The notes under the pieces: model-generated | Told to the model about the DNA's origin: nothing | Seen by the model: the letters and a program-made list of their open reading frames with translations, nothing else | Database searches by the model: none | Translations under genes and position numbers: made by a program | Source of the DNA: Bacilli bacterium | GTDB taxonomy: Bacteria > Bacillota_I > Bacilli_A > ML615J-28 > CAG-313 | Direction of reading: 5' to 3' | Assembly: GCA_900752975.1 (NCBI GenBank) | Contig: CAADXH010000098.1 | Span: 58 to 64,057 of the forward strand | Length of the DNA: 64,000 nt | In this document: piece after piece, positions 4,491-60,342 of the stretch | Layout: every line of letters starts with the position of its first letter | How positions within the stretch are numbered: position 1 is the stretch's first letter

Positions 4491-5780
4491 TTAATTTTTT
4501 AAAGCCGTAATAGGGACAACAAATACACCATCTGATCGAATGTATGCGGCATTAGCTAAACCACAGATAACACACAGAATTTTAGGGGCTTTACCACCAT
4601 TTTCAATAATACTATTACGAGTTTTGATTAGGTTTTTCGCACCTTCATCAATTTTTTTCGCTCCAATTTTTATTTCAAATGCACACCATTCTCCATCCTC
4701 TAATTCAATTACAGCATCTATTTCATTGTTTTTATAATCTTGATAATGATAAAGAATACCACCAAAGGCTTGAGCATATATGGCTAAATCTCTTTCTACT
4801 AATGATTCAAACATAAAACCAAATGTATTCAAGTCACTTAATAGTTTATCAGCTGTAATATTTAATAAGGCACATGCCATAGCAGGATCACTAAAGTGAC
4901 GTTTTTCTTGTTGTTTAACGCGTAATGAAGAACGAAGGTTAGGCGAAAATGGTTTTTGATTATTTAATAAGAATAAACGTTCAAACGCATCTAAATATTT
5001 TTTGATAGTATTTCTGCTCATTGATTCATTATCTTGTTCAATCATATCATTAAGTAATGACATATCAGATACTGTTGTTGATTCATTTCTTGCAAGAGAT
5101 TTTAATAATAGTCTCATTTTATGTCTATCATACTCTATTTCGTTATCAAATCTATTTAAATCTTCCTCAATAATTGTTTCCATATAAGATCTTGGCATTA
5201 AGTGTGCATTATCTTTAGTCGTAGAAATATTTTCAGGCCAACCACCACGAACGATATAATAAGCCAAATCACATAGAGATGTTTCATCTAACATTTGTTC
5301 TTGAAGTGTACCATTACATAATTGTTCTAGACTTATTTTGCCTGATGAATCACCTGATTCAAATAATGACATTGTGTTCATTCTTAATTTAACAATTCTA
5401 CCCGAACCACTATGCATAATTCCTTTAGTTTTAGGCGTTGAAGAACCAGTCAAAATGATTTGTCCTTTTGCATGTCTTTTATCAACTTCTGCTCTTGTCG
5501 CATCCCAAATCGAAGGTACTTCTTGCCATTCATCTATCAATCTTGGGGTATCACCTTGTAAAATTAATAACGGATTTAATTCAGCTAGTTGACGATTAGA
5601 AAAATTATTAGTAGGATCACCAACTAAAAATTCACTATTTGCATGAAATGCTGATGTCCAAGTTTTTCCACACCACTTTGGTCCTTCAATACATATAGCA
5701 CCACTGACTTGCATATATTTATCTATCGTTTTATCGATAATTCGCTTTTTATAATCACTTTTATTTTTAATTACACTCAT
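4491..5780 (-). CDS. AAA+ ATPase, COG1373 family with C-terminal DUF4143-like domain
   Basis: Walker A-like GPKWCGKTW near the N-terminus. Length (429 aa) and layout are typical of the AAA plus DUF4143 family. Confidence 0.7.
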   Translation of the reverse strand: MSVIKNKSDYKKRIIDKTIDKYMQVSGAICIEGPKWCGKTWTSAFHANSEFLVGDPTNNFSNRQLAELNPLLILQGDTPRLIDEWQEVPSIWDATRAEVDKRHAKGQIILTGSSTPKTKGIMHSGSGRIVKLRMNTMSLFESGDSSGKISLEQLCNGTLQEQMLDETSLCDLAYYIVRGGWPENISTTKDNAHLMPRSYMETIIEEDLNRFDNEIEYDRHKMRLLLKSLARNESTTVSDMSLLNDMIEQDNESMSRNTIKKYLDAFERLFLLNNQKPFSPNLRSSLRVKQQEKRHFSDPAMACALLNITADKLLSDLNTFGFMFESLVERDLAIYAQAFGGILYHYQDYKNNEIDAVIELEDGEWCAFEIKIGAKKIDEGAKNLIKTRNSIIENGGKAPKILCVICGLANAAYIRSDGVFVVPITALKN

Positions 5781-5972: not shown

Positions 5973-6608
5973 TTAGTTTAGTTGTTTTTTCAATATTATT
6001 TCTTTACTCTTCATTAGACGAATAATGTTACTTCTTTCATTATCTTCTAGTTTCATTGTAATGAAATGAATATTTTCTTCTAAGTTAGGAATTAACACAT
6101 ATTCAATAGCATTAACACGTCTTCTTGTTTTTTCAATTTCAACCGCAAGCATATCACAGCTTTTTTCAATTTCAGCAAGTTTTACCATTTTATCTACTAA
6201 AGTTGAAAGTCTTAAGACAGATTCATCAAGTTCACATGGTGTAAAGGCAAAACTGTATGTTATGTCAGTACTATCAGATGATTCTACTTTTAGACTTGGA
6301 ACTTTAATGTTCATTATTGTTTTGTCAGAAATATCAAGTTTTAAGTTTTGTGAAGGAACAAGAAAGGCTTCCATCAATCCAGCATAGCTCATTTTAAGGC
6401 GAGCTGAGCCAAAGGTACCAGCTATAAGAGCAAGCTCTGATTCAACAGTTTCTCTTAATTCACGGTTTTGTTTAATTAGATTCATAAACTGTCTAACCAT
6501 TTCATCTTGTTTATCTTTTAGTAATTTATGGCCTCTTGTTGCGGTGGAAAGTTCTTTTTTTAGACGCATTAGTTCCATTCTTGTTGGATTTATTGTCGTC
6601 TGTGCCAT
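5973..6608 (-). CDS. ntpD: V-type ATP synthase subunit D
   Basis: N-terminus MAQTTINPTRMELMRLKKEL is typical of V/A-ATPase subunit D. Last gene of the ntp operon. Confidence 0.9.
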   Translation of the reverse strand: MAQTTINPTRMELMRLKKELSTATRGHKLLKDKQDEMVRQFMNLIKQNRELRETVESELALIAGTFGSARLKMSYAGLMEAFLVPSQNLKLDISDKTIMNIKVPSLKVESSDSTDITYSFAFTPCELDESVLRLSTLVDKMVKLAEIEKSCDMLAVEIEKTRRRVNAIEYVLIPNLEENIHFITMKLEDNERSNIIRLMKSKEIILKKQLN

Positions 6609-36572: not shown

Positions 36573-36601
36573 CAACGGAAAAAGAGTAACTTAGTTACTT
36601 T

Positions 36602-36675
36602 CTTTAATCGTAGTCCTATCATTTAAGGCGATAGGGTAGAGACTTTCGAACCATATTATCGAATTTATACGATTT
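36602..36675 (-). ncRNA. Purine riboswitch aptamer, guanine-type
   Basis: Minus-strand RNA: AAUCGUA (P1) UAAAU UUCGA-UAAUAUGG-UUCGAA (P2/L2) AGUCUCUACC (J2/3) CUAUCG-CCUUAAAU-GAUAGG (P3/L3) AC UACGAUU (P1). C is at the specificity position. Confidence 0.7.
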
Positions 36676-36785
36676 ATTAGCTTCATCTATATTTTATCAT
36701 ATAACTTTTAAATTGCAATTCTTTACACATTGAAAACGTTTTAATGCCTAATTGTAAATCAATGTCGTAACTTGTATTTTTGTAA

Positions 36786-46424: not shown

Positions 46425-47081
46425 TTACTTTTCTAGTATTTTTTTTACATTTGCACTATTTTCTTTAATTAAATTAAAGACTTTCGCAAGAGGTTCACCA
46501 TCAACTAGAGCATGTGAAACTGTAATATTAAGGGTTAAAGTGTATCTACCCTCTTTTTCGGTAAACTTACTCCAACAAATACGAGGAACAGATAGTGATT
46601 CGATATTACCACTTGGAATTGGATGTGTGAATGCATCAAATTCAAGCCATGGTAAGCATGTCAAATAAAACACATTGTATTCAGTAGTATTATATGCATC
46701 AACAACTGTTAGCTGTGGTTTTTTTCTTTCAATTTCTTCATGAGCATCATCATAAAACTTATAGTAGTCGAAATTCATCTCGTTACTACCATTTTCAAAA
46801 CTACCACCAGCTGTTTTAATTGTATAAGTTGGATGCACAATATCATATAAGCGAACTTCACCATCTACCACGCGTAATCGCATTTCTTCTACTTCATTTA
46901 AGCTTTTTGATACTACGTATAAAAAATTAATAAAAAATGAAGTTTTGGTCATTTTTGAAAATTTTACTACTTCTGTTACATCAATAGTTGCATCTATTCC
47001 ATAACATGGATTTGAAAATGAAGAAAACCAGTTATATTGTTTGCTTCTTTTCCAATTTTTTACATCAATTACACTATACAT
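46425..47081 (-). CDS. Chloramphenicol acetyltransferase (CAT) family protein
   Basis: IDVKNWKRSKQYNWFSSFSNPCYGIDATIDVT matches the CAT N-terminal signature. Also HPTYTI, and the catalytic-His region VSHALVDG. Confidence 0.78.
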   Translation of the reverse strand: MYSVIDVKNWKRSKQYNWFSSFSNPCYGIDATIDVTEVVKFSKMTKTSFFINFLYVVSKSLNEVEEMRLRVVDGEVRLYDIVHPTYTIKTAGGSFENGSNEMNFDYYKFYDDAHEEIERKKPQLTVVDAYNTTEYNVFYLTCLPWLEFDAFTHPIPSGNIESLSVPRICWSKFTEKEGRYTLTLNITVSHALVDGEPLAKVFNLIKENSANVKKILEK

Positions 47082-47183
47082 AAATTACCTCCCACTTTTC
47101 TATAATTATTTTATCAAATTTTAAAGGTATTGTAAAGAAAAACATACCATTCTTTGAAATGATATGTTTTTAAGGATGTTTAT

Positions 47184-48620
47184 TTATTCTTTATTAATAT
47201 TTAAGATTGATACGGCATCTGTAATTGTCTTTTCAAATGCCTCCATGCCATATTTATCGACTTCTGTTTTATTTTTTTCGCCATGAGTTAAGCAACCGGC
47301 ACCACCGATACAGCCACCAATACAAGCCATACCTTCAATAAAGTTTGCATCTAAGACATTCTTATTCTTTCTAAGTAATGCCATTTTACATTCTTCAATA
47401 CCATCACATGGAATTGCTTTTAAAACAAAGTCATTTATGTTAGCTTCTTTTAGTCCTTCTGCCATAGCATCTGATAACCCACCAGAACGTGCGAAGATTC
47501 TTCCATAATATGATGCATTATCTAATATATCTTCTTCAAGGGTTGTAATATCAAGGTCCTTACTGTCAAATAAAGCTTGTAATTCTTCAAATGTTAAAAC
47601 TTCATCAACATAAGGTTTTACTTCTTCTTGTTGGATTTCCATCTTTTTAGCTGTACAAGGACCGATAAAAACAATTTTACTATTTGGATCGTTTTGTTTA
47701 ATATATTTAGAAATAGTTGCCATAGGTGATAAATTATGTGATAAATATTGTTTTAGGTTAGGAAATTCTTTTTTCAAGTAAGCCACAAAGGCTGGACAAC
47801 AACTACTTGTTAAAAATCCTTTTTCAGCAAGTTCTTTAGCCTCAGACATCGCTACCATATCAGCACCAAGAGCTGCTTCAATAACGGTATAAAAGCCTAA
47901 GTTTTTAAGACCCGTTATAACTTGACCTAATTTTGCATAATTAAACTGACTTGAAATGGAAGGAGCTACTACCGCATATACTTTATATTTTGTATTGTTT
48001 TGACTCTTCTTAATAATATCAATAACATCAATTATAAATGATTTATCAGTGATTGCTCCAAAAGGACATTGATATACACAAGCACCACATGCAATACACT
48101 TATCATTATTAACTTTTGCTTCTTTATTTTCACCCATAGTTATAGCTTTTACTTTACATGCTACTTCACAAGGGCGTTTATAATTATGGATGGCACTATA
48201 TGGACAAACTTTCGCACACGCACCGCACTCTACACATTTTGTTTTATCAATTCTTGCGACATGGTTATTATCAAATGAAATAGCACCACGCTTACATGCG
48301 GCTTCGCATCTATGAGCTAAACAACCACGACAAGCATTTGTTACATCATATCCACCCATTGGGCATTCATCACAAGCAATGTCTATTACCTCAATTACGT
48401 TTGGATTATTGCGATCCCCACCCATTGCTATTTTCACTCTTTCAGCAATAATAGCACGTTCTTTATATACGCAGCAACGCATTGTTGGAACATTACCAGA
48501 AATTATTTCTTTCGGAATATCTAAGATATGATCATATAGAGTTTCATTCCAAGCATATCTTGCGACTTCACGCAATACTTCATATTTTATATATTGGACT
48601 TTTGTGTCAAACTTTCTCAT
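47184..48620 (-). CDS. [FeFe] hydrogenase-like protein with N-terminal 4Fe-4S ferredoxin domains
   Basis: Several CxxCxxCxxxCP clusters. H-cluster motifs TSSCCPAFV (L1), GPCTAKKME (L2, Gly in place of Met) and EGMACIGGCIGGAGC (L3). Confidence 0.8.
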   Translation of the reverse strand: MRKFDTKVQYIKYEVLREVARYAWNETLYDHILDIPKEIISGNVPTMRCCVYKERAIIAERVKIAMGGDRNNPNVIEVIDIACDECPMGGYDVTNACRGCLAHRCEAACKRGAISFDNNHVARIDKTKCVECGACAKVCPYSAIHNYKRPCEVACKVKAITMGENKEAKVNNDKCIACGACVYQCPFGAITDKSFIIDVIDIIKKSQNNTKYKVYAVVAPSISSQFNYAKLGQVITGLKNLGFYTVIEAALGADMVAMSEAKELAEKGFLTSSCCPAFVAYLKKEFPNLKQYLSHNLSPMATISKYIKQNDPNSKIVFIGPCTAKKMEIQQEEVKPYVDEVLTFEELQALFDSKDLDITTLEEDILDNASYYGRIFARSGGLSDAMAEGLKEANINDFVLKAIPCDGIEECKMALLRKNKNVLDANFIEGMACIGGCIGGAGCLTHGEKNKTEVDKYGMEAFEKTITDAVSILNINKE

Positions 48621-48631
48621 ATATTCACCAA

Positions 48632-49804
48632 TTAAAAGTAACTTACTTTTATCCTTTTACCCATTTGTTTTAAATACTTTGATAATTCCTCAACTAAATT
48701 CATTTTTATACTAAAGTTGATTGGTAAGTCTGGATTTTGGTGAGCAGGGTTAATTGCTCTACCTACATAAAAGTTAATGTCCGTAGCTTCTTCAAATAAC
48801 ATTCTACTAATTAAAGAAGCACCATCTTTTTTAAAGCACCAATCATCATATAATTTATTCTCACCAACATAGTCTTTAGCATATTCCACAACCTTATTAA
48901 TTGTGATAACTCCTTCTGTTACTAAGTCAACGCCTTCAATTGTTGCAGTAGGAGGAATATTTGAATTTTCGAAATTAAGAGATGCAACTAGTGGCTTACC
49001 TAAATACTTGGAAACAATTGATGAAGTAGTGCCACCACAAACAATGTGCTTACCTTCTTTTGCGAAGAAAAGGGCCATCATTCTATTGCAGTCATTACGA
49101 TCAGATGGAGGACCAAACAAAATATTAACCGGTTCTCTTTTTCTAATTTTTACTACACATGCAGTAGCATCATCACCAGGTGCACCACCATATAGTTTAT
49201 CGCATTCATCAATTAACATTGTTGACATTGTTTTAGCGGTATAACCACCACAATTAATGTCTTTCATATACTCAGCAATATCACTAAGTTTCCAACCAAA
49301 ATTATAAGCAATACCAATTCCAGCATGAGGACATCCATCACTCATTGCAATTATTACATCATTTTCTTCTAATTTAATTTGTGTTTTATAAATCTTTTTA
49401 CCACCAATAATTAATTCAGATTTAGGATAGTCATAAATTTCATTATTTCTTAAAAAAATCATCTGAGGATTATCATATTGAATTAATTCAGCACTTTCAT
49501 TATTTTTGATATGAATGATTGAAAATGTTGAGTAAGCAACACCTCTAACTGAACAAATTGGAAGAGTCGCTGCAATCGTGTCAACACATGACTCAAGTGA
49601 TAAACCAGCAGAAATCATTGTGGAAATGATTTTAGAAGTAAGGGTTGATAGAATGCTTGCTTTTACGCCACTACCAAGTCCATCAGCAAGAACTATAATC
49701 GTCGAACCATCTTCTTGTTCGATGACATCCATATGGTCTCCGCATAACTCTTCTCCTGCGTGATTAATACTTTTATAACCAATATCTGCACATAGATTAT
49801 TCAT
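48632..49804 (-). CDS. PP2C-family (SpoIIE/RsbU-like) serine phosphatase
   Basis: Motifs ADGLGSG and GDDATA, with metal-binding Asp residues. 390 aa. Overlaps the hydS stop. Confidence 0.85.
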   Translation of the reverse strand: MNNLCADIGYKSINHAGEELCGDHMDVIEQEDGSTIIVLADGLGSGVKASILSTLTSKIISTMISAGLSLESCVDTIAATLPICSVRGVAYSTFSIIHIKNNESAELIQYDNPQMIFLRNNEIYDYPKSELIIGGKKIYKTQIKLEENDVIIAMSDGCPHAGIGIAYNFGWKLSDIAEYMKDINCGGYTAKTMSTMLIDECDKLYGGAPGDDATACVVKIRKREPVNILFGPPSDRNDCNRMMALFFAKEGKHIVCGGTTSSIVSKYLGKPLVASLNFENSNIPPTATIEGVDLVTEGVITINKVVEYAKDYVGENKLYDDWCFKKDGASLISRMLFEEATDINFYVGRAINPAHQNPDLPINFSIKMNLVEELSKYLKQMGKRIKVSYF

Positions 49805-51488
49805 TCGTAATTGACTCCTTTAATTTAGTAAGAGCAATTTTGGTTTCTGCTGCTGTTTCACCTAGAAGTGAAGCAATTTCTTGAACAATTCGCATTTGCT
49901 TGTCAACCACTTTATCGGCAATTTCTACAGTTTGTTTGCTTATTGATTCTTTCTTACTCTTTTCTAGAGTTGCTTCAGTCACATCACGCATGATGCAAAT
50001 CAATAGGTGATAATTTATATCATAAATAATTGATTGTTCAACATATTTATCATATTCAGCAAGATAAATTTTTTCATTTTTAATATTTTGTTTAGTATCT
50101 AAAACTTTAATGAAAGGCACTGGGTCAAGAATTCTTACAACCTGATCACCTAATATATCAGAATCACTTCTAATATTTAAAATCTTTTTAGCTGCTGAAT
50201 TAATTTGTTGAACTTCAAATTTTTCATTTAAGACGATTAAACCATTTGGTGTATTACTAACAATACAATCTGAAAAACTTTCAGCCTTTTCCTTTAAATA
50301 AGGTAGACACATTGATATTTCAGCTTTACCTTGATAAATAGCAATGGCTTTATCATGACAAGTATTGTATCCACATGAACCACAGTTCAATTCATCACTT
50401 TTTTTAGTTTTTCCCATTTGTTTCATTATTTGGGTTATTTCATATTCAGTAGGAATAGCACTTGTAACTTTAATTGGCGCAAAGTTCTTTTGATAGAATA
50501 AGCTATTTTCTTGAGCTACTTCAAAGTCTTTAGAACCTGCGTACTTATTAACAAGTAAATAATCCTTTAAATGTGAATTATGATGTTTTTCAATTATTGG
50601 ACCAGCAATACAGCTACCATGACATGCGGACATTTCAATAAAACATTTAGTTATTTTACCTGCTTCAATATCTTTTAAAGCTGCAATACAATTTTCAGTA
50701 CCATCAACAGACATATAGGCATAACCTGGAGCATCACAAGCCATTGTCTTTAGGATACCACCGGTTGTTGGGAATAATCTAGTTTTGCTATGTTCATTTT
50801 GTTCTTGGTCTAGTTCTTTTTCAAGTTCAATATGTTCTTCTTTTAACCAGTTTGATAGTTCCTCAAAAGTTAAAACACAATCCACAATCCCTTCATATCG
50901 GTCGGCTTCATCTTTTTTCGCAACACATGGTCCAATAAATATTGTTTTAGCATCAGGATGACGTTTTTTAATATCGGTACAATGTGCTTGCATAGGACTC
51001 ATAACATTAGCAAGATACTTTAATTCATTTGGAAAGTACTTTTGAATTAATAAGTTTACAGAATGACAACATGAAGAAATCAAAATGTCATTGAACCCTT
51101 CTCTTAAAATTTTATCATACTCATTCTTAACAAAGGTTGCTCCTATTGCCGTTTCCTCTACATCATAAAAGCCTAATTTCTTTAAAGCTTTACGAATAGA
51201 TTCAATTCCTATACCATCATAATTTGCAATAAATGATGGGGCAATACTAGCAATAACTGGAACATTTAAATTTAAAAGCATCTTTGCTTTTTCAATTCCA
51301 TCAACTATTTGTTTTGCATCTTGTGGACAAACTACAAAGCATTGACCACATAAAATACATTCATTATCAACAATATGAGCTTGGTTAGCTGAGAATCTAA
51401 TTGACTTTACTGGACAATGTCTAATACATTTATAACAATTCTTACAATTAGATTTTTTTAAAGTTAAATAACTCGCCATTTTATTCAC
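49797..51488 (-). CDS. hydS: Sensory-type [FeFe] hydrogenase (HydS/HfsB-like): H-cluster domain plus Cys-rich linker plus C-terminal PAS domain
   Basis: L1 ISSCCHSV; L2 GPCVAKKDE (Gly in place of Met); L3 EMSACHGSCIAG (Ser in place of Met), as reported for sensory HydS. CGSCGYNTCHDKAIAIYQGKAEISMC, then a PAS-like domain. Confidence 0.85.
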   Translation of the reverse strand: MNKMASYLTLKKSNCKNCYKCIRHCPVKSIRFSANQAHIVDNECILCGQCFVVCPQDAKQIVDGIEKAKMLLNLNVPVIASIAPSFIANYDGIGIESIRKALKKLGFYDVEETAIGATFVKNEYDKILREGFNDILISSCCHSVNLLIQKYFPNELKYLANVMSPMQAHCTDIKKRHPDAKTIFIGPCVAKKDEADRYEGIVDCVLTFEELSNWLKEEHIELEKELDQEQNEHSKTRLFPTTGGILKTMACDAPGYAYMSVDGTENCIAALKDIEAGKITKCFIEMSACHGSCIAGPIIEKHHNSHLKDYLLVNKYAGSKDFEVAQENSLFYQKNFAPIKVTSAIPTEYEITQIMKQMGKTKKSDELNCGSCGYNTCHDKAIAIYQGKAEISMCLPYLKEKAESFSDCIVSNTPNGLIVLNEKFEVQQINSAAKKILNIRSDSDILGDQVVRILDPVPFIKVLDTKQNIKNEKIYLAEYDKYVEQSIIYDINYHLLICIMRDVTEATLEKSKKESISKQTVEIADKVVDKQMRIVQEIASLLGETAAETKIALTKLKESITNE

Positions 51489-51494
51489 CTCTTG

Positions 51495-51746
51495 TTATTT
51501 GATAAGGGGAGCGACCTTTTCATTCCATAATTTTTGAATAGTATCTACAGTAATGCCCGTATAGATATCATCGTTAATAAAGATTGTCACACCTATACGG
51601 TTACATTTACCTGCACAAAAGCTACCTGATAGTAAGATCTTATCACTTAAATTTTCACTTTCAATTTTTTTTGACAAAAATTCAACAATCTCTGGTGCTT
51701 TTTTAAGAAAACAAGAACTTCCTATACATACTTTTATTTCAATCAT
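51495..51746 (-). CDS. Thioredoxin-like [2Fe-2S] ferredoxin (NuoE-like small protein), copy 2
   Basis: 83 aa with the Cys pattern CIGSSC...CAGKC. Paralog of the upstream gene. Confidence 0.7.
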   Translation of the reverse strand: MIEIKVCIGSSCFLKKAPEIVEFLSKKIESENLSDKILLSGSFCAGKCNRIGVTIFINDDIYTGITVDTIQKLWNEKVAPLIK

Positions 51747-51991
51747 TTCTTTAATCTTCCTAATACTTCTTTTTCAAAAAACTCATTTACAGTTTCAGGA
51801 GATACAGAATATAATTCATCATTTACAGTTACACATACTCCACATTGACACTTCCCCATACAGAAAGTACCATTCAATTCTACTTCATCGCCTAAGTTAT
51901 TTTTTGCAATTAAATATTGTAATTGTTCAACTACTTGTCTTGATCCTTTAATATGGCATGAACTACCGATACATACAGTTACTTTAATCAT
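51743..51991 (-). CDS. Thioredoxin-like [2Fe-2S] ferredoxin (NuoE-like small protein), copy 1
   Basis: 82 aa with the Cys pattern CIGSSCHIKG...CMGKCQCGVC. A 4-nt ATGA overlap with the next copy. Confidence 0.7.
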   Translation of the reverse strand: MIKVTVCIGSSCHIKGSRQVVEQLQYLIAKNNLGDEVELNGTFCMGKCQCGVCVTVNDELYSVSPETVNEFFEKEVLGRLKK

Positions 51992-52009
51992 TTTAATTTC
52001 CTCCTAATA

Positions 52010-52759
52010 TTATTCGTAATCTACTACATTAACCCAAGAAAGTAAGAATTCTCTTTCTTTCTCGTTACCTTTAACTGATTGTGAAGCCGCAACAATTGGA
52101 AGCCATCTTTGGATATCTTTCTTTGATACATTGCTCTTGTTGCAGTAAACTTCTAAATATTTTTCAGCACCAGTTAAATCACCTGATAACCAGAATAAAA
52201 GATATGTTCTTGCGGCATCGGCACAAGGATTTCCTTGTGTTGCATGTGACCAGTCAATGATGTAAGCTTCACCATCATCTGCGATAATAACATTAGATGG
52301 GTTGAAATCACCATGACATAAAGCATTACCTTTAGGCATACTTTCTAGACGTGTGTGTAAATCATATTTAGTAGTAGCGTTAATATCAGCTAAATTAATT
52401 TTGCGATTCATTTTATCTTTAAGTTTAGTAAGAAGTGGGCAAGTATTAGCTTGAACCATTAGTTGTAATTCAACAAATTTAGCCATATACTCATCTTTTT
52501 TCTTAGGGAATTTTTCCATTAATTGTGCTAATGTATTACCTTTTATGAATTCAGTAACGATAGCCCATTTACCATCAACCATAGATATTTCTTCGATTTT
52601 TGGAACGTTAATATCTAATTCTTCAACTCTTGCTTGGTTTAAAGCTTCGTTTAAAATATCAGCTTTTGAGTAGTTTTCATTGAACACTTTAACACATTTA
52701 TCGCCATCTTTATAGATAGTTTTTGCATTTCTAACAGCTATAATTTTTTCTAGATTCAT
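52010..52759 (-). CDS. Phosphotransferase-family (APH/ChoK-fold) kinase
   Basis: Catalytic loop HGDFNPSNVII and IDWSHA, the Brenner/APH motif. 249 aa. RBS GAGGAAG lies 17 nt after the adhE stop. Confidence 0.7.
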   Translation of the reverse strand: MNLEKIIAVRNAKTIYKDGDKCVKVFNENYSKADILNEALNQARVEELDINVPKIEEISMVDGKWAIVTEFIKGNTLAQLMEKFPKKKDEYMAKFVELQLMVQANTCPLLTKLKDKMNRKINLADINATTKYDLHTRLESMPKGNALCHGDFNPSNVIIADDGEAYIIDWSHATQGNPCADAARTYLLFWLSGDLTGAEKYLEVYCNKSNVSKKDIQRWLPIVAASQSVKGNEKEREFLLSWVNVVDYE

Positions 52760-52776
52760 ACTTTCTTCCTCGCTTT

Positions 52777-55485
52777 CTATTTAACTATTCTCTTATCTTT
52801 TTTATAAAGTTTTTTAAAATCGTTTTTATCTTCTGGGATAAAATCATTCTCATCTTGAGTTGGAACAGCTTTTTCAACAAATGTTTTACCATAATATGCA
52901 TTTAGATACATTTGTTTAATTTCACTCATTAGAGGATATCGAGGGTTAGCACCTGTGCATTGGTCATCAAATGCTTGTTCAACCATTGCATCTAGACGGT
53001 CTAAGAAATCTTTTTCATCAGGTACATAATCTTTGATTGTTGGTTTGATACCAATTTTAACTTTTAATTCATCAATAGCTTTAATTAAATTTTCAACTTT
53101 TTCTTGATCAGTTTTTCCACCGAAGCCTAAAGCTTCACTAACTTCGGCATAACGCCTTAATGTATGTGGATGATCATATTGAGGGAAAGTACCCATCTTA
53201 GCAGGAACTTCGGCTGAATTAAATCTAATTACTTCATCAATCATTAGTGCATTTGCAATACCGTGAGGTAAATGATGGAAGGCACCAAGTTTATGAGCCA
53301 TAGAGTGACAAACCCCTAGAAATGCATTTGCGAAAGCCATACCTGCCATTGTTGCAGCATTAGCCATTTTTTCACGTGCTTCAGGATCATGTGGACCATC
53401 ATTGTATGCTCTAGGTAGATATTCAAATATTACTTTTAATGATTGAATAGCTAAACCATCAGTATAGTCAGTTGCCATAAGTGATGCATAAGCTTCAAGA
53501 CAGTGTGTAACAGCATCAATACCAGATGCAGATGTCAAACCTTTAGGAGCTGTCATATGGAAGTCAGCATCAACGATTGCCATCTTAGGTAATAATTCAT
53601 AATCAGCAAGTGGATATTTAACACCTGTTGCCTCATCAGTAATAACCGCAAATGGAGTTACTTCTGAGCCAGTACCAGCTGATGTTGGGATAGCGATAAA
53701 GTATGCTTTTTCACCCATCTTAGGGAATGTATAAATACGTTTACGAATATCCATGAAACGCATTGCCATATCTAAGAAGTCTACTTCTGGATGTTCATAT
53801 AATACCCACATAATCTTTGCAGCATCCATAGCAGAACCGCCACCTAAAGCAATAATGCAGTCAGGCTTGAATGATGTCATTTGTTCAGCACCACGTTTTG
53901 CACATGCAAGTGTTGGGTCAGGTTCTACATCAAAGAATACAGCATATTCCATATCCATTTCTTTTAATTTTTCAATAATTGGGTTTGCATTACCATTAGT
54001 ATATAGGAATTTATCAGTTACGATAAATGCACGTTTTTTATTCATTACATGTTTTAATTCATCTAAGGCAACTGGTAAGCAGCCTTTCTTAATATAGACT
54101 TTTTCTGGAGCTCTAAACCAAAGCATATTTTCCCTTCTTTCGGCAATAGTTTTAATATTGATTAAGTGTTTTACACCAACGTTTTCTGAAACACTGTTTC
54201 CACCCCATGAACCACAACCTAAAGTTAGTGATGGTGCAAGTTTAAAGTTATAAATGTCACCAATACCGCCTTGAGATGAAGGAGTATTAACAAGAATACG
54301 ACAAGTTTTCATTCTTTCTGAGAATTCTTTAAGTTTTTCTTGTTCAGTTATTGTATTTAAATAAATTGAAGAAGTGTGACCATATCCACCATCAGCAATT
54401 AATCTTTCAGCTTTTTGGAAGGCATCTTCAATGTCTTTCGCATGATACATTGCTAGAACTGGTGATAGTTTTTCATGAGCAAATTCTTCTGATAAATCAA
54501 CTGATTCAACTTCACCAATTAAAATCTTAGTACCTTCTGGAACATTAACATGAGCCAAACTAGCAATTGTTGCGGCTGATTGACCTACGATTTTAGCATT
54601 TAAAGCACCATTAATAATAATTGTCTTACGTACTTTATTTAGTTCTTCTTCATTTAAGAAATAGCAACCACGATTCATAAATTCATCTTTAACAGCTTCG
54701 TAAACGCCATCTAAAACGATTACTGATTGTTCAGATGCACAAATCATACCATTATCAAAAGTTTTTGAATGAATGATTGAGTTAACTGCAAGTACGATGT
54801 CTGCACTGTCATCAATGATAGCAGGAGTGTTACCTGCACCAACACCAACGGCAGGTTTACCAGATGAATAAGCAGCTCTAACCATACCAGGTCCACCAGT
54901 AGCAAGAATAATATCGGCTTCTTTCATAACTGTATTTGTAAGTTCAAGACTTGGAACATCAATCCATCCAATGATTCCTTCAGGGGCACCAGCAGCAACA
55001 GCAGCTTCTAGAACTATCTTTGCGGCAGCAATTGTTGATTTTTTAGCTCTTGGATGTGGGCTAATAATAATACCATTTCTAGTCTTTAATGCAAGTAATG
55101 ATTTGAAGATTGCAGTTGAAGTTGGATTTGTTGTTGGAATAACTGCAGCAATAACTCCGATTGGTTCTGCTACTTTTTTAATACCATAAGCTTTGTCTTC
55201 TTCAATAACACCACAAGTTTTTTCATAGCGATATTTATTGTAAATATACTCTGAAGCATAATGGTTTTTAATAACTTTATCCTCTACAACACCCATCCCT
55301 GTTTCCTCTACTGCCATTTTAGCAAGTTCAATACGTGCCTTATTTGCAGCAAGAGAAGCTGCTAAAAAGATTTTATCAACTTGTTCTTGTGTGTAAGTTG
55401 CATACTTCTTTTGAGCATTTCTAATTTCAGCAAGTCTTTGTGATAGTGTTTCTAAACTATCAACTACTAAATAATCTTTTTTCAT
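52777..55485 (-). CDS. adhE: Bifunctional aldehyde/alcohol dehydrogenase
   Basis: 902 aa with an N-terminal ALDH domain and a C-terminal Fe-ADH domain. N-terminus MKKDYLVVDSLETLSQRLAEIRNAQKKYA is typical. Confidence 0.95.
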   Translation of the reverse strand: MKKDYLVVDSLETLSQRLAEIRNAQKKYATYTQEQVDKIFLAASLAANKARIELAKMAVEETGMGVVEDKVIKNHYASEYIYNKYRYEKTCGVIEEDKAYGIKKVAEPIGVIAAVIPTTNPTSTAIFKSLLALKTRNGIIISPHPRAKKSTIAAAKIVLEAAVAAGAPEGIIGWIDVPSLELTNTVMKEADIILATGGPGMVRAAYSSGKPAVGVGAGNTPAIIDDSADIVLAVNSIIHSKTFDNGMICASEQSVIVLDGVYEAVKDEFMNRGCYFLNEEELNKVRKTIIINGALNAKIVGQSAATIASLAHVNVPEGTKILIGEVESVDLSEEFAHEKLSPVLAMYHAKDIEDAFQKAERLIADGGYGHTSSIYLNTITEQEKLKEFSERMKTCRILVNTPSSQGGIGDIYNFKLAPSLTLGCGSWGGNSVSENVGVKHLINIKTIAERRENMLWFRAPEKVYIKKGCLPVALDELKHVMNKKRAFIVTDKFLYTNGNANPIIEKLKEMDMEYAVFFDVEPDPTLACAKRGAEQMTSFKPDCIIALGGGSAMDAAKIMWVLYEHPEVDFLDMAMRFMDIRKRIYTFPKMGEKAYFIAIPTSAGTGSEVTPFAVITDEATGVKYPLADYELLPKMAIVDADFHMTAPKGLTSASGIDAVTHCLEAYASLMATDYTDGLAIQSLKVIFEYLPRAYNDGPHDPEAREKMANAATMAGMAFANAFLGVCHSMAHKLGAFHHLPHGIANALMIDEVIRFNSAEVPAKMGTFPQYDHPHTLRRYAEVSEALGFGGKTDQEKVENLIKAIDELKVKIGIKPTIKDYVPDEKDFLDRLDAMVEQAFDDQCTGANPRYPLMSEIKQMYLNAYYGKTFVEKAVPTQDENDFIPEDKNDFKKLYKKDKRIVK

Positions 55486-55502
55486 AACCTTTGTTCTCCT
55501 TT

Positions 55503-56129
55503 TTAATTATTATTTATTTCAACTGCAAGCATTGTTAATAACGATGTTATATCAACATTTTTCACATTTATTTTTTCATCTACATCTAATTTTTGATTTG
55601 TAAAATTTAGAATGCCTTTAATTCCACTACCAGCAATTAATTGGCATACTTCTTTTGCACTATCTGATGAAACAGCTAGTACTCCAATTTTGACATTATT
55701 TTCCATACAAAATTTTTGAACATTGCCGATGGACTGTACTTGAAGATCCCCAAAAGCTTTGCCAATTTTATTTTTATCATTATCAAAGATACCTATTATC
55801 TTAAAGCCTTGGTCTTTAAAGCCTTGATACTTGACTAATGCTTCGCCAATTTTTCCTGCTCCAACTACAATCACATTTGTTACGTCGTCAGTTCGAACCA
55901 AGCGTTCTAAATCGGTTTTTAATTCTTCAGTTACATACCCTATTTTAGGTTTGCCATTACCGGAAATTAAGTTTAAGTCTTTTCTAACTTGTACTTCACC
56001 AAGATTTAAATCGGTTGCCATCATTTTGGAAGATACCATTTTTACATCAAGGTTTACAAGTTGATTTAAATAATTAAGATATAGTGGAATTCTTTCAACC
56101 ACTGACCTTGGTATTTTCTTATTACACAT
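55503..56129 (-). CDS. rex: Redox-sensing transcriptional repressor Rex
   Basis: N-terminal winged helix (IPRSVVERIPLYLNYL) plus Rossmann GAGKIG. 208 aa. Only 17 nt upstream of adhE. Confidence 0.9.
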   Translation of the reverse strand: MCNKKIPRSVVERIPLYLNYLNQLVNLDVKMVSSKMMATDLNLGEVQVRKDLNLISGNGKPKIGYVTEELKTDLERLVRTDDVTNVIVVGAGKIGEALVKYQGFKDQGFKIIGIFDNDKNKIGKAFGDLQVQSIGNVQKFCMENNVKIGVLAVSSDSAKEVCQLIAGSGIKGILNFTNQKLDVDEKINVKNVDITSLLTMLAVEINNN

Positions 56130-56153
56130 ATAAAAAGCATCCTTTCTACAAAT

Positions 56154-56182
56154 ATTATACCAAAAAACATAACATTTGTAAA
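56154..56182 (-). promoter_or_regulatory. Promoter upstream of rex (TTTACA-17-TGgTATAAT)
   Basis: -35 at 56177-56182, extended -10 at 56154-56159 on the minus strand, and an RBS AAAGGA. Confidence 0.45.
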
Positions 56183-56192
56183 ATACTAAAAA

Positions 56193-56225
56193 AGTATATC
56201 GATATATCGTTATCGATATATTAGT
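56193..56225 (-). terminator. AT-rich palindrome cluster between lysR and rex (weak terminator or operator)
   Basis: gtATATCGATATATCGttATCGATATATtag contains the perfect palindromes CGATATATCG and TATCGATA, with U6 following on the minus strand. Confidence 0.3.
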
Positions 56226-56227
56226 AT

Positions 56228-57154
56228 TTATTTATAACTGTTTTTACGTTTACTCTCACAAAGTTTGGTTATAAATTCATTATCTAGGCTACTTAACACA
56301 TATGATTTTCGGTATATTAAAACATCTTTATATTTTTTAACATTATCAGCACATGCTTTTTGAATTAATCCATATCGTTTAAGTGTAATTTCTGGTATTG
56401 GTGATACCCACATAAAAGTATTAGCATTATTTGCTAGAAGTTCAAACTGGCTAGCTCGTTCAAAAACAAAGATTCTTTTATTAATACCTTCACTAAAGGC
56501 ACTCTTAGATACTTCAGTAACAGGAAGAGAAGGAACATATGGATCGCCATGAGCAATTTCCATCAAGTCTTTTAAGTCTTGTTGCGTAATCTCAGTTAGT
56601 TTTGCTAAAGGGCTATTATTATTGAATACTAAAACATAATTAAATTCATTAATTAGTTCATAATTTAATTCTTTTTTATCAAATAATTCCTTAAAATATT
56701 TATCGTGTTCAGCATAGTACCTAACTATACCTAATTTATAATTCTCTTCCATAATATTATGAATTACCCGATAAGCATTTGTTTCTTTATAAAAAGCTTC
56801 AATATTATCAATATTATTTAACGTTTTAGAAAATTCCATAAAAGCATCAGAAACATAACTGGCTCTTGGTACGGCAATTGAAAAAACGTTTTTCTTTTGT
56901 TGACCTTTAAATATTTTTTCCATTTCATCAAACTGATTTAATAGTCTTTTACTATATTCAACTAAACGTTCACCATCAGGGGTTAGGGCAATTCCTTTTT
57001 TTGTACGTTCAAAAATTGTAATACCAAGATCACTTTCCAAGTCTTTTATGGCTCTAGAAACATTGGGTTGAGCAACATAAAGTCGCTCGGCAGCTTTACT
57101 GATTGAACCTGTTTCTGAAACAGCAATTGCATACTTTAAGTGTAAAATATTCAT
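56228..57154 (-). CDS. LysR-family transcriptional regulator
   Basis: N-terminal HTH ISKAAERLYVAQPNVSRAIKDLE. 308 aa. Confidence 0.85.
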   Translation of the reverse strand: MNILHLKYAIAVSETGSISKAAERLYVAQPNVSRAIKDLESDLGITIFERTKKGIALTPDGERLVEYSKRLLNQFDEMEKIFKGQQKKNVFSIAVPRASYVSDAFMEFSKTLNNIDNIEAFYKETNAYRVIHNIMEENYKLGIVRYYAEHDKYFKELFDKKELNYELINEFNYVLVFNNNSPLAKLTEITQQDLKDLMEIAHGDPYVPSLPVTEVSKSAFSEGINKRIFVFERASQFELLANNANTFMWVSPIPEITLKRYGLIQKACADNVKKYKDVLIYRKSYVLSSLDNEFITKLCESKRKNSYK

Positions 57155-57813: not shown

Positions 57814-60342
57814 TTATTTATATTTTTCTATTATGGTTTTTTCACTAAAAGTATCAGTTTCATATTCCGTTTTTTCATAAACATATACTTTTAAATTTTC
57901 TGGTTTTTTTACCATAAAAGCTTGTGAACCAATGCATTTAAGCGATTTAGGCAAAACAATTTCGCCACATAAACCTGACTGTTGAAAAGCAGCGTATCTA
58001 ATTTCTTCTAATCCTTCCACAAATTTTACGGTTTTTAAACTTTCTTTAAAGACAAATGTACCAAACTCAATTACTTTTAAGTTTTTGCCTAAAGTTATTT
58101 GTTCTAAATTTTCATACCAAGTAAACATTGCATCATTGATCTCATCGATATCATCATCTACAATAACATTTTCTGCACATTCTATTAAGTTTTTAGCTAT
58201 GCGTTTTCCATTTTTCTCGATGACTTCTGTAATTTGTGATAGTTTAACTGGTGCTTTTTTACTTTCAAAATTATTGGTTTTAGAAACATTTTTATCTTTT
58301 TCTTTTCTTAGAGCTCGTTGTTTTCCGGTTTCACCATTTACTTCAATTAGACTATGAAAACTATCATCATAGTATATCGTATCTTTTGAAACAGTAACTT
58401 TCAATAAAGTCGGAAGTTTCACATCAAAAGCGTGAGGTTTTATCTCTTTTAAAGAATTAGGTAATGTAATGTTTCCTGTAATACCAGTTTCATAAAAAGC
58501 ATTAGTTTCAATTACCTCAAGCCCTTCTACAAAATTAACTACTTCAAGATTTCTTAACATATTAAATAATTCTTTAGGTATCACTTTTAAGTTTTTACCT
58601 AAGGTTATTTCTTTTAATTTACTACAGTTCATTAAAGCATTAGGACTAATTTCAATTACTTTATCATCTATTAAAAGTTTAGTACAAACATCAGGAACTT
58701 TAGTAACTAAATAGCCCTTGCCAAGCTTATTTTTTTCACATATATCAAGAATGTTATACACTTTATTAGGGTCTTCTTTTTGATCTTTTGGTTCTTCTAC
58801 TTTGGTTTTGACGGTATTTTTTGTTTTAGTTTCTGTTTTTGTAACTTTTGATGGTGTACTTTCATTTGGCACCTCAACATAAACAAATTGTTTAAATTTA
58901 TGTGTGCGAGTAGGTAAATCTAATTTTTTCCATAGTAAATCTAAATCTTTTTCGGTAAGATCTTCTTCATATTCTTTCATCGCATTATCCATAATTAGAT
59001 TAAATTCACTATTCCAACCATTTCGATTAAACTTTTCATATCTTGAAACAAAGTAATCGTTTACTAAAAATATACAAAAATTAGCGATAGTATATAGTCT
59101 ATCATCAAACGGCTTACGATATCTATCATTATTTATAGTACGATTAACTTCAATTTGTTTACTATATTCATGCAATTCTAAATCTTTATCATTATATGTA
59201 TTTTTAATAAACTCCTCATTATTTATCAAAAAAGTAGTTAACATATCTCTTTTGATATTTAATTGTTCATTAACAATATAAGATGTGCGTATACTTTTTA
59301 CATCATTTTCGATAAGATATGAGTAATAGTATAAACTAAAATCAATTGCTTTATTATAATTGTCATGTATTTTTTTGAAGTTTTCTAAATGCTCTTTTAA
59401 TTTAGGGTATTTTTCAGGTCGTATATATGATTTATTTTGAGGTGGGTTAATACTACCTGTCATCATGTTAGTCATTTTACAAGCAGTTCCATAATCTAAT
59501 CCCGTAGAGCAAAATTCATGAAGAAGATATTCATTAAGTGTACTTTCATAACTTAAATATTTATTATAATAGTTTTGTTTTTTATTATAATAATTCAAGG
59601 CATTCTCATGTCTTCTAATGATTGTACCATATGAAGTAATGAAGCCTTGGATTTGTTTCATTGTTAAACTACTACTATCCCATAGTAATTTTTTCTTTGG
59701 TTCGTTTTTAAATTTAGTAACATCATCATTCAATTCTAGTTTAGTGAATTTATTATATCTTGCATCCATATCCAAATAATACCATAAAGAGGTAATCTTA
59801 GATTCTAGGGTTGAACCAGTTGCATTTATTCCTTCACTATCTAAATACATCTTACAAGCATTATCTATAGCTATATTAAAATCACTTGTGTTACTTTCTT
59901 TAGCAATATATTTTTTTATTATTTTACAATAGCAACCAGATATTTTTTTGCATAAATCACAAGTTTTTTTGACATTCTCTCTACTTGAAAAATACCATTT
60001 CCGATTTCTGTCGGTATCTTCTTCAGGATTTTTTGTCCAATCTAACATAAAATTAATTTCAATTTCTATGTCGTCTATTGCTTTTGCTAAATCATCAAAT
60101 TCATGACTTTGCATATTGATATCTTTTAGTGTCCATTTAAGTAGGGGAATTGTTATATGTAAATATGTGTGTAATGCTTCTCCCAGTTCTAGAGTTGCTT
60201 TCTTAAATGAATTACTAGTGTAATTAATATAGGCCTTTGTTTCATTTAAAGCAAGTTCGTCAACATGTTTTGCGGATGCAAGAGCAAAATACATAGTTTT
60301 AGTATAATACTCTAATCTTTTTTTATCAATACTCATAAGCAT
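57814..60342 (-). CDS. Large protein with C-terminal BspA-type leucine-rich repeats (LRR_5). N-terminal 500 aa unknown. No signal peptide.
   Basis: Repeated units such as ITLGKNLKVIPKELF...EGLEVIETNAF...NITLPNSLKEI (two cassettes). Confidence 0.65.
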   Translation of the reverse strand: MLMSIDKKRLEYYTKTMYFALASAKHVDELALNETKAYINYTSNSFKKATLELGEALHTYLHITIPLLKWTLKDINMQSHEFDDLAKAIDDIEIEINFMLDWTKNPEEDTDRNRKWYFSSRENVKKTCDLCKKISGCYCKIIKKYIAKESNTSDFNIAIDNACKMYLDSEGINATGSTLESKITSLWYYLDMDARYNKFTKLELNDDVTKFKNEPKKKLLWDSSSLTMKQIQGFITSYGTIIRRHENALNYYNKKQNYYNKYLSYESTLNEYLLHEFCSTGLDYGTACKMTNMMTGSINPPQNKSYIRPEKYPKLKEHLENFKKIHDNYNKAIDFSLYYYSYLIENDVKSIRTSYIVNEQLNIKRDMLTTFLINNEEFIKNTYNDKDLELHEYSKQIEVNRTINNDRYRKPFDDRLYTIANFCIFLVNDYFVSRYEKFNRNGWNSEFNLIMDNAMKEYEEDLTEKDLDLLWKKLDLPTRTHKFKQFVYVEVPNESTPSKVTKTETKTKNTVKTKVEEPKDQKEDPNKVYNILDICEKNKLGKGYLVTKVPDVCTKLLIDDKVIEISPNALMNCSKLKEITLGKNLKVIPKELFNMLRNLEVVNFVEGLEVIETNAFYETGITGNITLPNSLKEIKPHAFDVKLPTLLKVTVSKDTIYYDDSFHSLIEVNGETGKQRALRKEKDKNVSKTNNFESKKAPVKLSQITEVIEKNGKRIAKNLIECAENVIVDDDIDEINDAMFTWYENLEQITLGKNLKVIEFGTFVFKESLKTVKFVEGLEEIRYAAFQQSGLCGEIVLPKSLKCIGSQAFMVKKPENLKVYVYEKTEYETDTFSEKTIIEKYK

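Follow-up and report, generated by a model that had tools for sequence, protein, structure and literature searches.

The 64,000-nucleotide stretch of DNA analysed here, referred to below as the window, comes from contig CAADXH010000098.1 of a Bacilli bacterium (assembly GCA_900752975.1). On its minus strand, from 56129 to 47184, a listing of open reading frames together with Pfam and NCBIfam scans places eight co-directional, tightly packed genes, which are predicted to encode, in order, a Rex repressor, a bifunctional AdhE, a kinase of the aminoglycoside phosphotransferase (APH) fold, two thioredoxin-like [2Fe-2S] ferredoxins, a putative sensory [FeFe] hydrogenase (HydS), a PP2C/SpoIIE-family phosphatase and a group B [FeFe] hydrogenase (Table 1). 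Gene order and protein similarity identify the locus as orthologous to Rumal_3400–3407, the H2-responsive ‘high-hydrogen fermentation’ operon of Ruminococcus albus 7, and the architecture is already known. A preliminary description of this DNA had spoken of a nine-gene array with three hydrogenase homologues; its own list held eight genes, and two of their products are hydrogenases.

The operon and its counterparts

The gaps between successive genes, from rex onwards, are 17, 17, 18, −4, 6, −8 and 11 nt, exactly as the preliminary description gave them, and the internal ribosome-binding sites are as good as it claimed. It had also seen a strong promoter only upstream of rex. In a scan of an 11.7-kb region the promoter-like site at that position, with its extended −10 TG, indeed reached the joint top score and was the best on the operon strand; promoter-like sites as a whole were not enriched in this AT-rich DNA. 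A terminator scan and folding revealed no convincing terminator within the array. Downstream of the group B hydrogenase gene lies a terminator-like hairpin whose 3′ arm ends in a U-run followed by CUUU; the consensus terminator scan, which requires three G–C pairs, missed this hairpin because it is AT-rich. The eight genes would fit one operon: they have ribosome-binding sites and gaps of at most 18 nt, and share a single strong promoter-like site and a terminator that comes only behind the last of them.

The corresponding region of the R. albus 7 megaplasmid pRUMAL01 (NC_014824.1) encodes a LysR regulator, Rex, AdhE, a phosphotransferase, two (2Fe-2S) ferredoxin-domain proteins, a HydS-type hydrogenase, a SpoIIE phosphatase and a hydrogenase of 478 residues. 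The same eight genes thus stand in the same order, on the same strand and with the same sizes, hydS and the phosphatase gene overlap by 8 nt, and a LysR gene and a LysR-type box lie upstream. Six of the proteins are 66–78% identical to their R. albus counterparts (Table 1). The two loci differ in that the window belongs not to a Ruminococcus but to an uncultured low-GC bacterium of the human gut, whose proteins NCBI labels as coming from Bacilli, Mollicutes or Coprobacillus-like metagenome-assembled genomes; the R. albus cluster is on a mobilizable megaplasmid, whereas around the cluster in the window no genes for mobility were noticed; Rex is only 35% identical; and the ferredoxin genes, which overlap by 4 nt in the window, are 5 nt apart in R. 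albus.

Table 1. Features of the cluster and its surroundings in the window, with the R. albus 7 counterparts (annotation from PMC6776011 Table S7) and protein identities
Feature	Positions	Strand	Evidence	R. albus 7 counterpart	Identity
LysR-family regulator gene, directly 5′ of operon	56228–57154	minus	PF00126 HTH_1 76 bits	LysR gene	54%
LysR-type box, imperfect palindrome ATCGATAACGATATATCGAT (ATCGATA-N5-ATATCGAT)	56198–56217	minus	T-N11-A-like; conserved		
Sigma-70-type promoter-like site TTTACA-17-TATAAT, extended −10 TG	56154–56182	minus	11/12 matches		
Degenerate Rex-operator remnant TTGGTATAATATTTGTAG	56146–56163	minus	8/14 specified positions		
rex	55503–56129	minus	208 aa; NF003995 206 bits, cutoff 126; PF06971 and PF02629	Rumal_3400, CoA-binding/Rex	35%
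adhE, bifunctional acetaldehyde-CoA/alcohol dehydrogenase	52777–55485	minus	902 aa; NF010378 1399 bits	Rumal_3401, iron alcohol dehydrogenase	73%
APH-fold kinase (eukaryotic-like kinase superfamily)	52010–52759	minus	249 aa; PF01636 49.5 bits, above cutoff	Rumal_3402, aminoglycoside phosphotransferase; ~114-fold co-regulated	66%
Thioredoxin-like [2Fe-2S] ferredoxin 1	51743–51991	minus	82 aa; PF01257 33.1 bits; Cys C7, C12, C44, C48	Rumal_3403, hypothetical	78%
Thioredoxin-like [2Fe-2S] ferredoxin 2	51495–51746	minus	83 aa; PF01257 28.3 bits; four Cys	Rumal_3404, hypothetical	48%
hydS, group C-type putative sensory [FeFe] hydrogenase	49797–51479 (longer ORF to 51488)	minus	Fe_hyd_lg_C, PF04060, weak PAS_9	Rumal_3405, PAS/PAC sensor	67%
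PP2C/SpoIIE-family Ser/Thr phosphatase	48632–49804	minus	390 aa; PF07228	Rumal_3406, SpoIIE	75%
Group B monomeric [FeFe] hydrogenase	47184–48620	minus	478 aa; TIGR04105 562.6 bits, cutoff 450	Rumal_3407, hydrogenase	72%
Intrinsic-terminator-like hairpin	47130–47171	minus	15 bp, −13.2 kcal/mol (ViennaRNA fold)		

RNA-seq of R. albus found transcripts of Rumal_3400–3407 each 90–130-fold lower in co-culture with the H2-consuming Wolinella (PMC6776011 Table S7). Greening et al. (2019; PMC6776011) described a ‘putative eight-gene cluster’ with a 111-fold drop in co-culture with the H2 consumer, and proposed that H2 is sensed. The proposal that HydS senses H2 and signals by way of its PAS domain to a Ser/Thr kinase next to it is attributed to Zheng et al. 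(2014) in the passage of PMC5707799 that summarises it, and hydS and hydA2 of pRUMAL01 are given as a transcriptional unit in a passage of PMC10838669. What the preliminary description took to be new, namely the kinase, the two ferredoxins and the extra hydrogenase, is all there, identically ordered, in the cluster described from R. albus. The broader suggestion of the preliminary description, that the genes are transcribed as one unit and that sensing of H2 or redox state governs AdhE by phospho-signalling, coincides with the hypothesis published for R. albus, so that it stands as a hypothesis and falls as a novelty.

A second point of comparison is the hfsABCD operon of Thermoanaerobacterium saccharolyticum and T. 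thermosaccharolyticum, in which a small HfsA is followed by the PAS hydrogenase HfsB, the PP2C phosphatase HfsC and the ferredoxin-linked hydrogenase HfsD. HydS, the phosphatase and HydA2 have HfsB, HfsC and HfsD as their recognised counterparts (PMC11837493). There is genetic evidence for a regulatory link to adhE (PMC5707799, PMC11837493): deletion of hfsB in Thermoanaerobacterium raises adhE expression and ethanol, and this requires hfsC and hfsD (PMC5707799). Unlike in the window, neither adhE nor rex is part of the operon, both being located at other chromosomal sites, and the hfs operon is described without a kinase.

A scan of one genome per species, with alignment of the kinase, yielded at least 593 confirmed relatives, from which 80 loci were kept (loci are cited by number, L001 and so on); tblastn synteny was informative upstream in 56 of these and downstream in 61. 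Upstream, adhE was found in 53 of 56 loci, the LysR gene in 46 and rex in 30. Downstream, ferredoxin 1 was present in 57 of 61 loci and ferredoxin 2 in 50, HydS and the phosphatase in 56 each and the group B hydrogenase in 53. Gene order is kept in nearly all 80 species-level loci, so the arrangement is common among relatives, the first half of what the preliminary description named as refuting it (an order both common and fully characterised), although the pathway is not fully characterised. Because the kinase served as bait in collecting the loci, the apparent centrality of the kinase arises partly by construction. An identical cluster occurs in many human-gut metagenomes from the window's organism, and the genes that flank the cluster in the window are not kept in other species. 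The unrelated flanks and the megaplasmid location in R. albus suggest a self-contained module that moves between lineages.

Some neighbouring features were also recorded. Directly past the operon terminator, at 46425–47081 on the minus strand, is a gene for a CatA-like O-acetyltransferase that belongs to the chloramphenicol acetyltransferase family but scores below the equivalog cutoffs; the gene has its own promoter-like site, and its product is 91–92% identical between strains, against 97–100% for the cluster proteins. A protein with LRR_5 repeats encoded upstream (57814–60342, minus strand, and L001–L004) has 559, 596 or 840–842 residues among strains of the same species, while the products of the adjoining genes are 97–100% identical between those strains. 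An Rfam scan gave no match inside the cluster; the only family matched in the 64-kb window is the purine riboswitch aptamer RF00167, at 36591–36692 on the minus strand (83.4 bits, gathering score 37).

The hydrogenases, the phosphatase and the kinase

The product of the last gene exceeds the cutoff of the group B model TIGR04105 (Table 1) and reaches 158 bits with the group A model, whose cutoff is 406. It contains TSSCCP, GPCTAKK and EGMACIGGC and keeps the equivalents of E279, E282 and S319. The preliminary label, ‘[FeFe]-hydrogenase-like’, was right about the family but spoke of mere likeness, which a score above the cutoff and a full set of H-cluster motifs do not bear out: by these features the protein is a real group B monomeric [FeFe] hydrogenase with a predicted intact proton pathway, and by similarity it is the orthologue of R. 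albus HydA2 and the counterpart of HfsD. HydA2 itself (Rumal_3407; L087:13130–14566) scores 577 bits with TIGR04105 (cutoff 450) and 158 bits with the group A model (cutoff 406); Greening et al. (2019; PMC6776011) labelled it group A1.

Two starts are available to HydS. The ATG at 51479 (560 residues) follows an AGAGGTG Shine–Dalgarno sequence, is the start chosen by gene callers and yields a product that the protein collection contains letter for letter, whereas the GTG at 51488 (563 residues) has no Shine–Dalgarno sequence. HydS thus probably starts at the ATG, which would leave 15 nt between hydS and the ferredoxin 2 gene. The protein is composed of two N-terminal [4Fe-4S] motifs, the H-domain, a Cx2Cx4Cx16C motif, a PAS domain and a terminal helix of 58 residues. 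Its SSCCH, GPCVAKK and EMSACHGSC align to the TSCCP, MPCxxK and ExMxCxxGC of solved hydrogenases, and all cluster-ligating cysteines are present. The L2 and L3 substitutions reported in the preliminary description, GPC for MPC and EMSAC for E-x-MAC, were recovered in this alignment. In a motif census of 70 HydS orthologues L2 and L3 could be read in all 70 and L1 in 68: glycine occupies the M353 position in 70 of 70, and at the M497 position, where the window protein has serine, L3 reads EMS in 68 of 70.

A small residue (Gly, Ser or Thr) at M353 combined with a residue other than Met at M497 was taken as the mark of a sensory enzyme (PMC8163306, PMC10055695). Glycine at L2 alone is no such mark, because the catalytic group B enzyme of the same operon has glycine there too; glycine at M353 has likewise been described in the group B enzyme CpIII (PMC10055695). 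The proton pathway of HydS is partly altered: the E279 region is deleted and S319 is replaced by Ala, while a Glu aligns at E282 and the cysteine equivalent to C299 (CpI numbering) is kept. In domain plan, Gly at M353, Ser at M497 and, in part, a non-canonical proton pathway, HydS resembles the group C (M2f) HydS of Thermotoga maritima. It differs from that protein in having the C299-equivalent cysteine where the Thermotoga enzyme has Ala131. T. maritima HydS is associated with a bifurcating group A hydrogenase; the partner here is a group B enzyme, with AdhE.

The C-terminal cluster motif of HydS (C369-x2-C372-x4-C377-x16-C394; PF04060, 39.8 bits) is present in all 70 orthologues. By sequence its PAS domain is weak, with a PAS_9 match below the cutoff (E = 8.6e-4) and a match to the CitA PASc profile at E = 0.003. 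Structure models were built on database homologues, and in an AlphaFold2 model of the C-terminal 207 residues a PAS topology, with predicted local distance difference test values of 85–92, is followed by the 58-residue helix; the top 50 Foldseek matches in the PDB are all PAS or LOV domains (best E = 5e-7). H-cluster ligands, the Cx2Cx4Cx16C motif and a PAS fold are thus all in place, so that the absence of H-cluster and PAS domain, which the preliminary description had named as refuting it, is not seen. The terminal helix (residues ~505–560; window 49800–49970, minus strand) is the most conserved stretch of HydS, being nearly invariant across 20 species whose HydS proteins are ~70% identical overall, and is likely to be a protein–protein interface.

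The start of the phosphatase gene overlaps the hydS stop by 8 nt, an overlap kept in 63 of 65 loci, which would fit translational coupling and a stoichiometric pair. The phosphatase has a PPM fold closest to the SpoIIE subfamily, with the metal-binding Asp residues kept, and carries an extra C-terminal Rossmann-like α/β domain (~residues 225–390) that is not a STAS domain. Like the RsbU/RsbV/RsbW and SpoIIE/SpoIIAA/SpoIIAB systems, the operon pairs a SpoIIE-family PP2C with a kinase and a sensory input domain; unlike them, it has an APH-fold kinase in place of a GHKL anti-sigma kinase, no STAS substrate, and a phosphatase with a Rossmann-like domain. A looser analogy is the HoxBC–HoxJ–HoxA system of Ralstonia eutropha, in which a low-activity hydrogenase and a PAS-type partner control hydrogenase transcription through phosphorylation (PMC5707799); there, however, the sensor is a [NiFe] enzyme acting with a histidine kinase and a response regulator, and the sequences are unrelated. 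The two small ferredoxins encoded upstream of HydS resemble the electron-transfer modules of NuoE/HydC.

In the kinase, K24, the HGDFNPSN loop (H149-G-D151-x4-N156) and D169 (in IDW) are invariant among 14 homologues, and besides PF01636 there are partial matches to RIO1/Bud32. The nearest solved structures are choline kinase, aminoglycoside kinases and, weakly, StkP, with marginal E-values that do not discriminate between a protein and a small-molecule substrate. More distant homologues are encoded on plasmids: that of Clostridium estertheticum (30% identical) is in an unrelated context, and the Niallia record (36%) is unannotated at that point. An association with the cluster is thus established for the subfamily of at least 47% identity only. 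Tsac_0415, beside adhE in T. saccharolyticum, was considered as a counterpart and set aside, being described as a protein of unknown function transcribed opposite to adhE.

AdhE ends in a poorly conserved tail of ~30 residues (~870–902; window 52777–52880, minus strand) that closes with a YRKGKKA-like sequence and is found in most cluster-linked AdhE proteins. It was rejected as a kinase-specific feature, since several full clusters lack it (L009, L036, L053, L057). The AdhE of Escherichia coli has a similar basic tail, and the tail is probably a general feature of AdhE.

LysR, Rex and the promoter region

The LysR gene directly upstream of rex lies beyond the part of the window treated in the preliminary description and was overlooked there. 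The nearest NCBIfam models, all below cutoff, are regulators of the CidR, GltC and AlsR types. Of the 56 informative loci, 46 encode a homologue (46–59% identical) upstream on the same strand, and so does R. albus 7, with the gene directly upstream of Rumal_3400; on this conservation we regard the LysR regulator as a conserved member of the module. In the literature searched we found no paper linking a LysR regulator to this cluster.

Between the LysR gene and rex, the pattern ATCGATA-N5/6-ATAYCGAT has its one match in the 64-kb window, where 0.00 matches would be expected. Of the fetched loci, 26, R. albus among them, have the pattern at the corresponding position, and near-matches are found in most of 41 aligned intergenic regions. 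The centre of the box lies ~60 nt 5′ of the predicted transcription start, and LysR-type activators usually bind ~60 nt upstream of the start. The promoter-like site of the window holds the same position relative to the box as the −35/−10 elements of other loci. A hairpin after the LysR gene (−10.5 kcal/mol) was considered as a terminator, but it is formed by the conserved palindromic box and was treated mainly as the operator. In two loci ~4 kb separate the LysR gene from the operon, and the box occurs twice: in L031 at 1609–1629, just after the LysR gene, and at 5547–5567, just before rex; in L078 at 1200–1220, just after the LysR gene, and at 5170–5190, ~0.5 kb before rex.

Rex has the GAGKIG Rossmann motif and the acidic residue in IFD and, by family match, is a predicted redox-sensing (NADH/NAD+) repressor. 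The preliminary description had made Rex a fused anchor of the module. Its gene is missing, however, from about half of the related loci, and the Rex proteins that do occur are only 30–42% identical among loci, against 70–80% for their neighbours; the pattern points to Rex as a facultative member. Nor does the window promoter carry a canonical operator: no match to TTGTKAA-N4-TTMACAA with up to two mismatches was found in 56130–56230, and the best local match there reaches 8 of 14 positions.

The situation in other loci is different. In most, the sequence 3′ of the LysR box reads AATTCCCAAA and then TTGTTAAAATATTAACAA, the latter a consensus Rex operator that overlaps the −10 element. Loci without a cis rex gene carry TTGTTAAAATATTAACAA at the position of the window remnant, with an operator match given as 12–14 of 14. 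Their mean match is 12.1 of 14, and 18 of 20 reach at least 12; among loci with rex, the mean is 10.2 of 14 and 3 of 21 reach at least 12. Presence of rex in cis and operator quality are thus inversely related (Mann–Whitney p = 8e-5, uncorrected for relatedness; 41 intergenic regions, L001–L087), and both the window and R. albus belong to the rex-carrying, weak-operator group. No alternative palindrome shared by the rex-containing loci was found by eye. At L042 a 321-nt stretch (~6000–6290) between the LysR box and promoter on one side and adhE on the other contains a fragment resembling the N-terminal DNA-binding region of Rex; this has the look of a rex gene in decay and points to loss of rex from some clusters.

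A model for H2-responsive control and its alternatives

In the scheme that follows, we infer every signalling step, the kinase substrate and the role of the LysR regulator. The operon would supply both of the enzymes needed as H2 accumulates, AdhE, which passes electrons from NADH to ethanol, and a ferredoxin-dependent group B hydrogenase. HydS, with an H-cluster adapted to sensing, would there bind or oxidise H2, and the two small 2Fe-2S ferredoxins might poise its redox state. From the C-terminal [4Fe-4S] site of HydS the signal would run by way of the PAS domain and the invariant helix at the end of the protein to the phosphatase, which would be produced by translational coupling with HydS. 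The phosphatase and the APH-fold kinase would then set the phosphorylation state of a target, and the output would be increased transcription from the single promoter upstream of rex, which carries the LysR-type box. Where a rex gene or Rex operator is present, Rex would add control by NADH; many relatives have an operator over the −10 element. The net result would be more AdhE and more ferredoxin-dependent hydrogenase once the bifurcating route to H2 turns unfavourable. Taken as a whole, we consider this H2-sensing HydS–phosphatase–kinase model for R. albus-type operons to be probable.

Several observations weigh against it. The C299-equivalent cysteine is kept in HydS in all 68 orthologues with a readable L1, unlike in the HydS of Thermotoga, so that HydS may turn over H2 better than a sensory model assumes (PMC10055695). 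The APH fold more often phosphorylates small molecules, and the ten proteins scanned with Pfam and NCBIfam contain no STAS or HATPase_c domain and thus no substrate of the STAS-type partner switch. The window lacks the canonical Rex operator, as described above. The LysR gene of R. albus was not among the differentially expressed genes (Greening et al., 2019), which neither supports nor excludes a role for LysR. Finally, because adhE–kinase pairs occur without HydS or the phosphatase, the kinase may not be the antagonist of the phosphatase. Such pairs were found in L042, L045, L051 and L060, which have the LysR gene, adhE and a kinase 68–71% identical to that of the window but no downstream hydS, phosphatase or hydrogenase genes, and in Collinsella aerofaciens (NZ_OY725717.1, 81062–84563; L088), where adhE is followed by the gene for a 47%-identical kinase with no HydS, phosphatase or hydrogenase genes nearby.

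These pairs suggest that the closest functional partner of the kinase may be AdhE. On the alternative that follows from this, the APH-fold protein is tied to AdhE and not to HydS and the phosphatase, either as a small-molecule kinase or as an AdhE-specific modifier, and an adhE–kinase pair has been joined to an hfs-type module of hydS, phosphatase and hydrogenase genes. The description of the Thermoanaerobacterium hfs operons as four genes without a kinase (PMC5707799, PMC11837493) agrees with such a history, as do choline kinase and the aminoglycoside kinases as best structural matches. Nevertheless, we hold this alternative to be doubtful: the kinase stays with the ferredoxins, HydS, phosphatase and hydrogenase, and with the LysR gene, in three loci from which adhE is absent (L029, L065, L086), and in R. 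albus it is co-regulated ~114-fold with the rest of the cluster. With the kinase as bait for the loci, moreover, its central place among them is partly built in.

Less well placed is the original view of Hfs as the main hydrogenase, by which HydS, the two ferredoxins and the group B enzyme form one multi-subunit catalytic hydrogenase, with the phosphatase and kinase acting post-translationally, for example on AdhE or the hydrogenase, and not on transcription. Removing the entire hfs operon reduces hydrogenase activity and the output of H2, and changes in adhE transcript do not explain all the changes in alcohol dehydrogenase and aldehyde dehydrogenase activity (PMC5707799); the retained C299-equivalent cysteine, the likeness of the small ferredoxins to NuoE/HydC modules and the tight coupling of all the genes point the same way. 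Deletion of hfsB alone, however, raises hydrogenase activity (PMC5707799), and the ~100-fold change in R. albus is at the level of transcripts. HydS, moreover, is without the proton-relay residues E279 and S319, shows the M353G and M497S substitutions of low-activity sensory enzymes, and carries a PAS domain and signalling helix. A purely catalytic complex is on this evidence unlikely.

The weakest alternative, in which the reductant pool and not H2 is sensed (the ferredoxins and the C-terminal [4Fe-4S] cluster of HydS reporting ferredoxin reduction, Rex reporting NADH, and H2 acting indirectly), can draw on the two 2Fe-2S ferredoxin genes that immediately precede hydS (57 and 50 of 61 loci), on the redox-type cluster adjoining the PAS domain, on the rex gene or Rex operator at most loci and on the confounding of H2 level with reductant pool in the R. 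albus co-culture, but is quite improbable, since the strict conservation of four H-cluster-ligating cysteines and of the pocket residues in 70 orthologues is hard to explain if H2 chemistry is irrelevant, and binding of H2 and reaction with it have been observed in vitro for related sensory enzymes (PMC8163306, PMC10055695).

Within the H2-sensing model that we prefer, a more specific version can be put forward tentatively, although we think it rather unlikely to hold in full. The module would comprise nine genes, the LysR gene included, with output through LysR and the ATCGATA-N5/6-ATAYCGAT box. Rex would be an interchangeable add-on, supplied either as a cis gene or as an operator served by a Rex encoded elsewhere, and the APH-fold protein would be a protein kinase opposing the HydS-controlled phosphatase, with LysR or AdhE as the target of both. 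If this were true, the cluster would hold an H2-responsive Ser/Thr phospho-switch with an APH-fold kinase, an architecture undescribed for any hydrogen sensor.

The window adds no new architecture, and the leads it offers belong to the whole family. On HydS signalling these are the conserved LysR regulator with its box and the complementary pattern of cis rex genes and Rex operators; to them can be added the putatively translationally coupled pair of HydS and phosphatase, the invariant terminal helix of HydS and the adhE–kinase pairs that occur without the sensor. In fermenting gut and rumen bacteria the cluster would govern how electrons are split among H2, acetate and ethanol, a split that matters for hydrogen transfer between species, for methane output and for ethanol bioprocessing.

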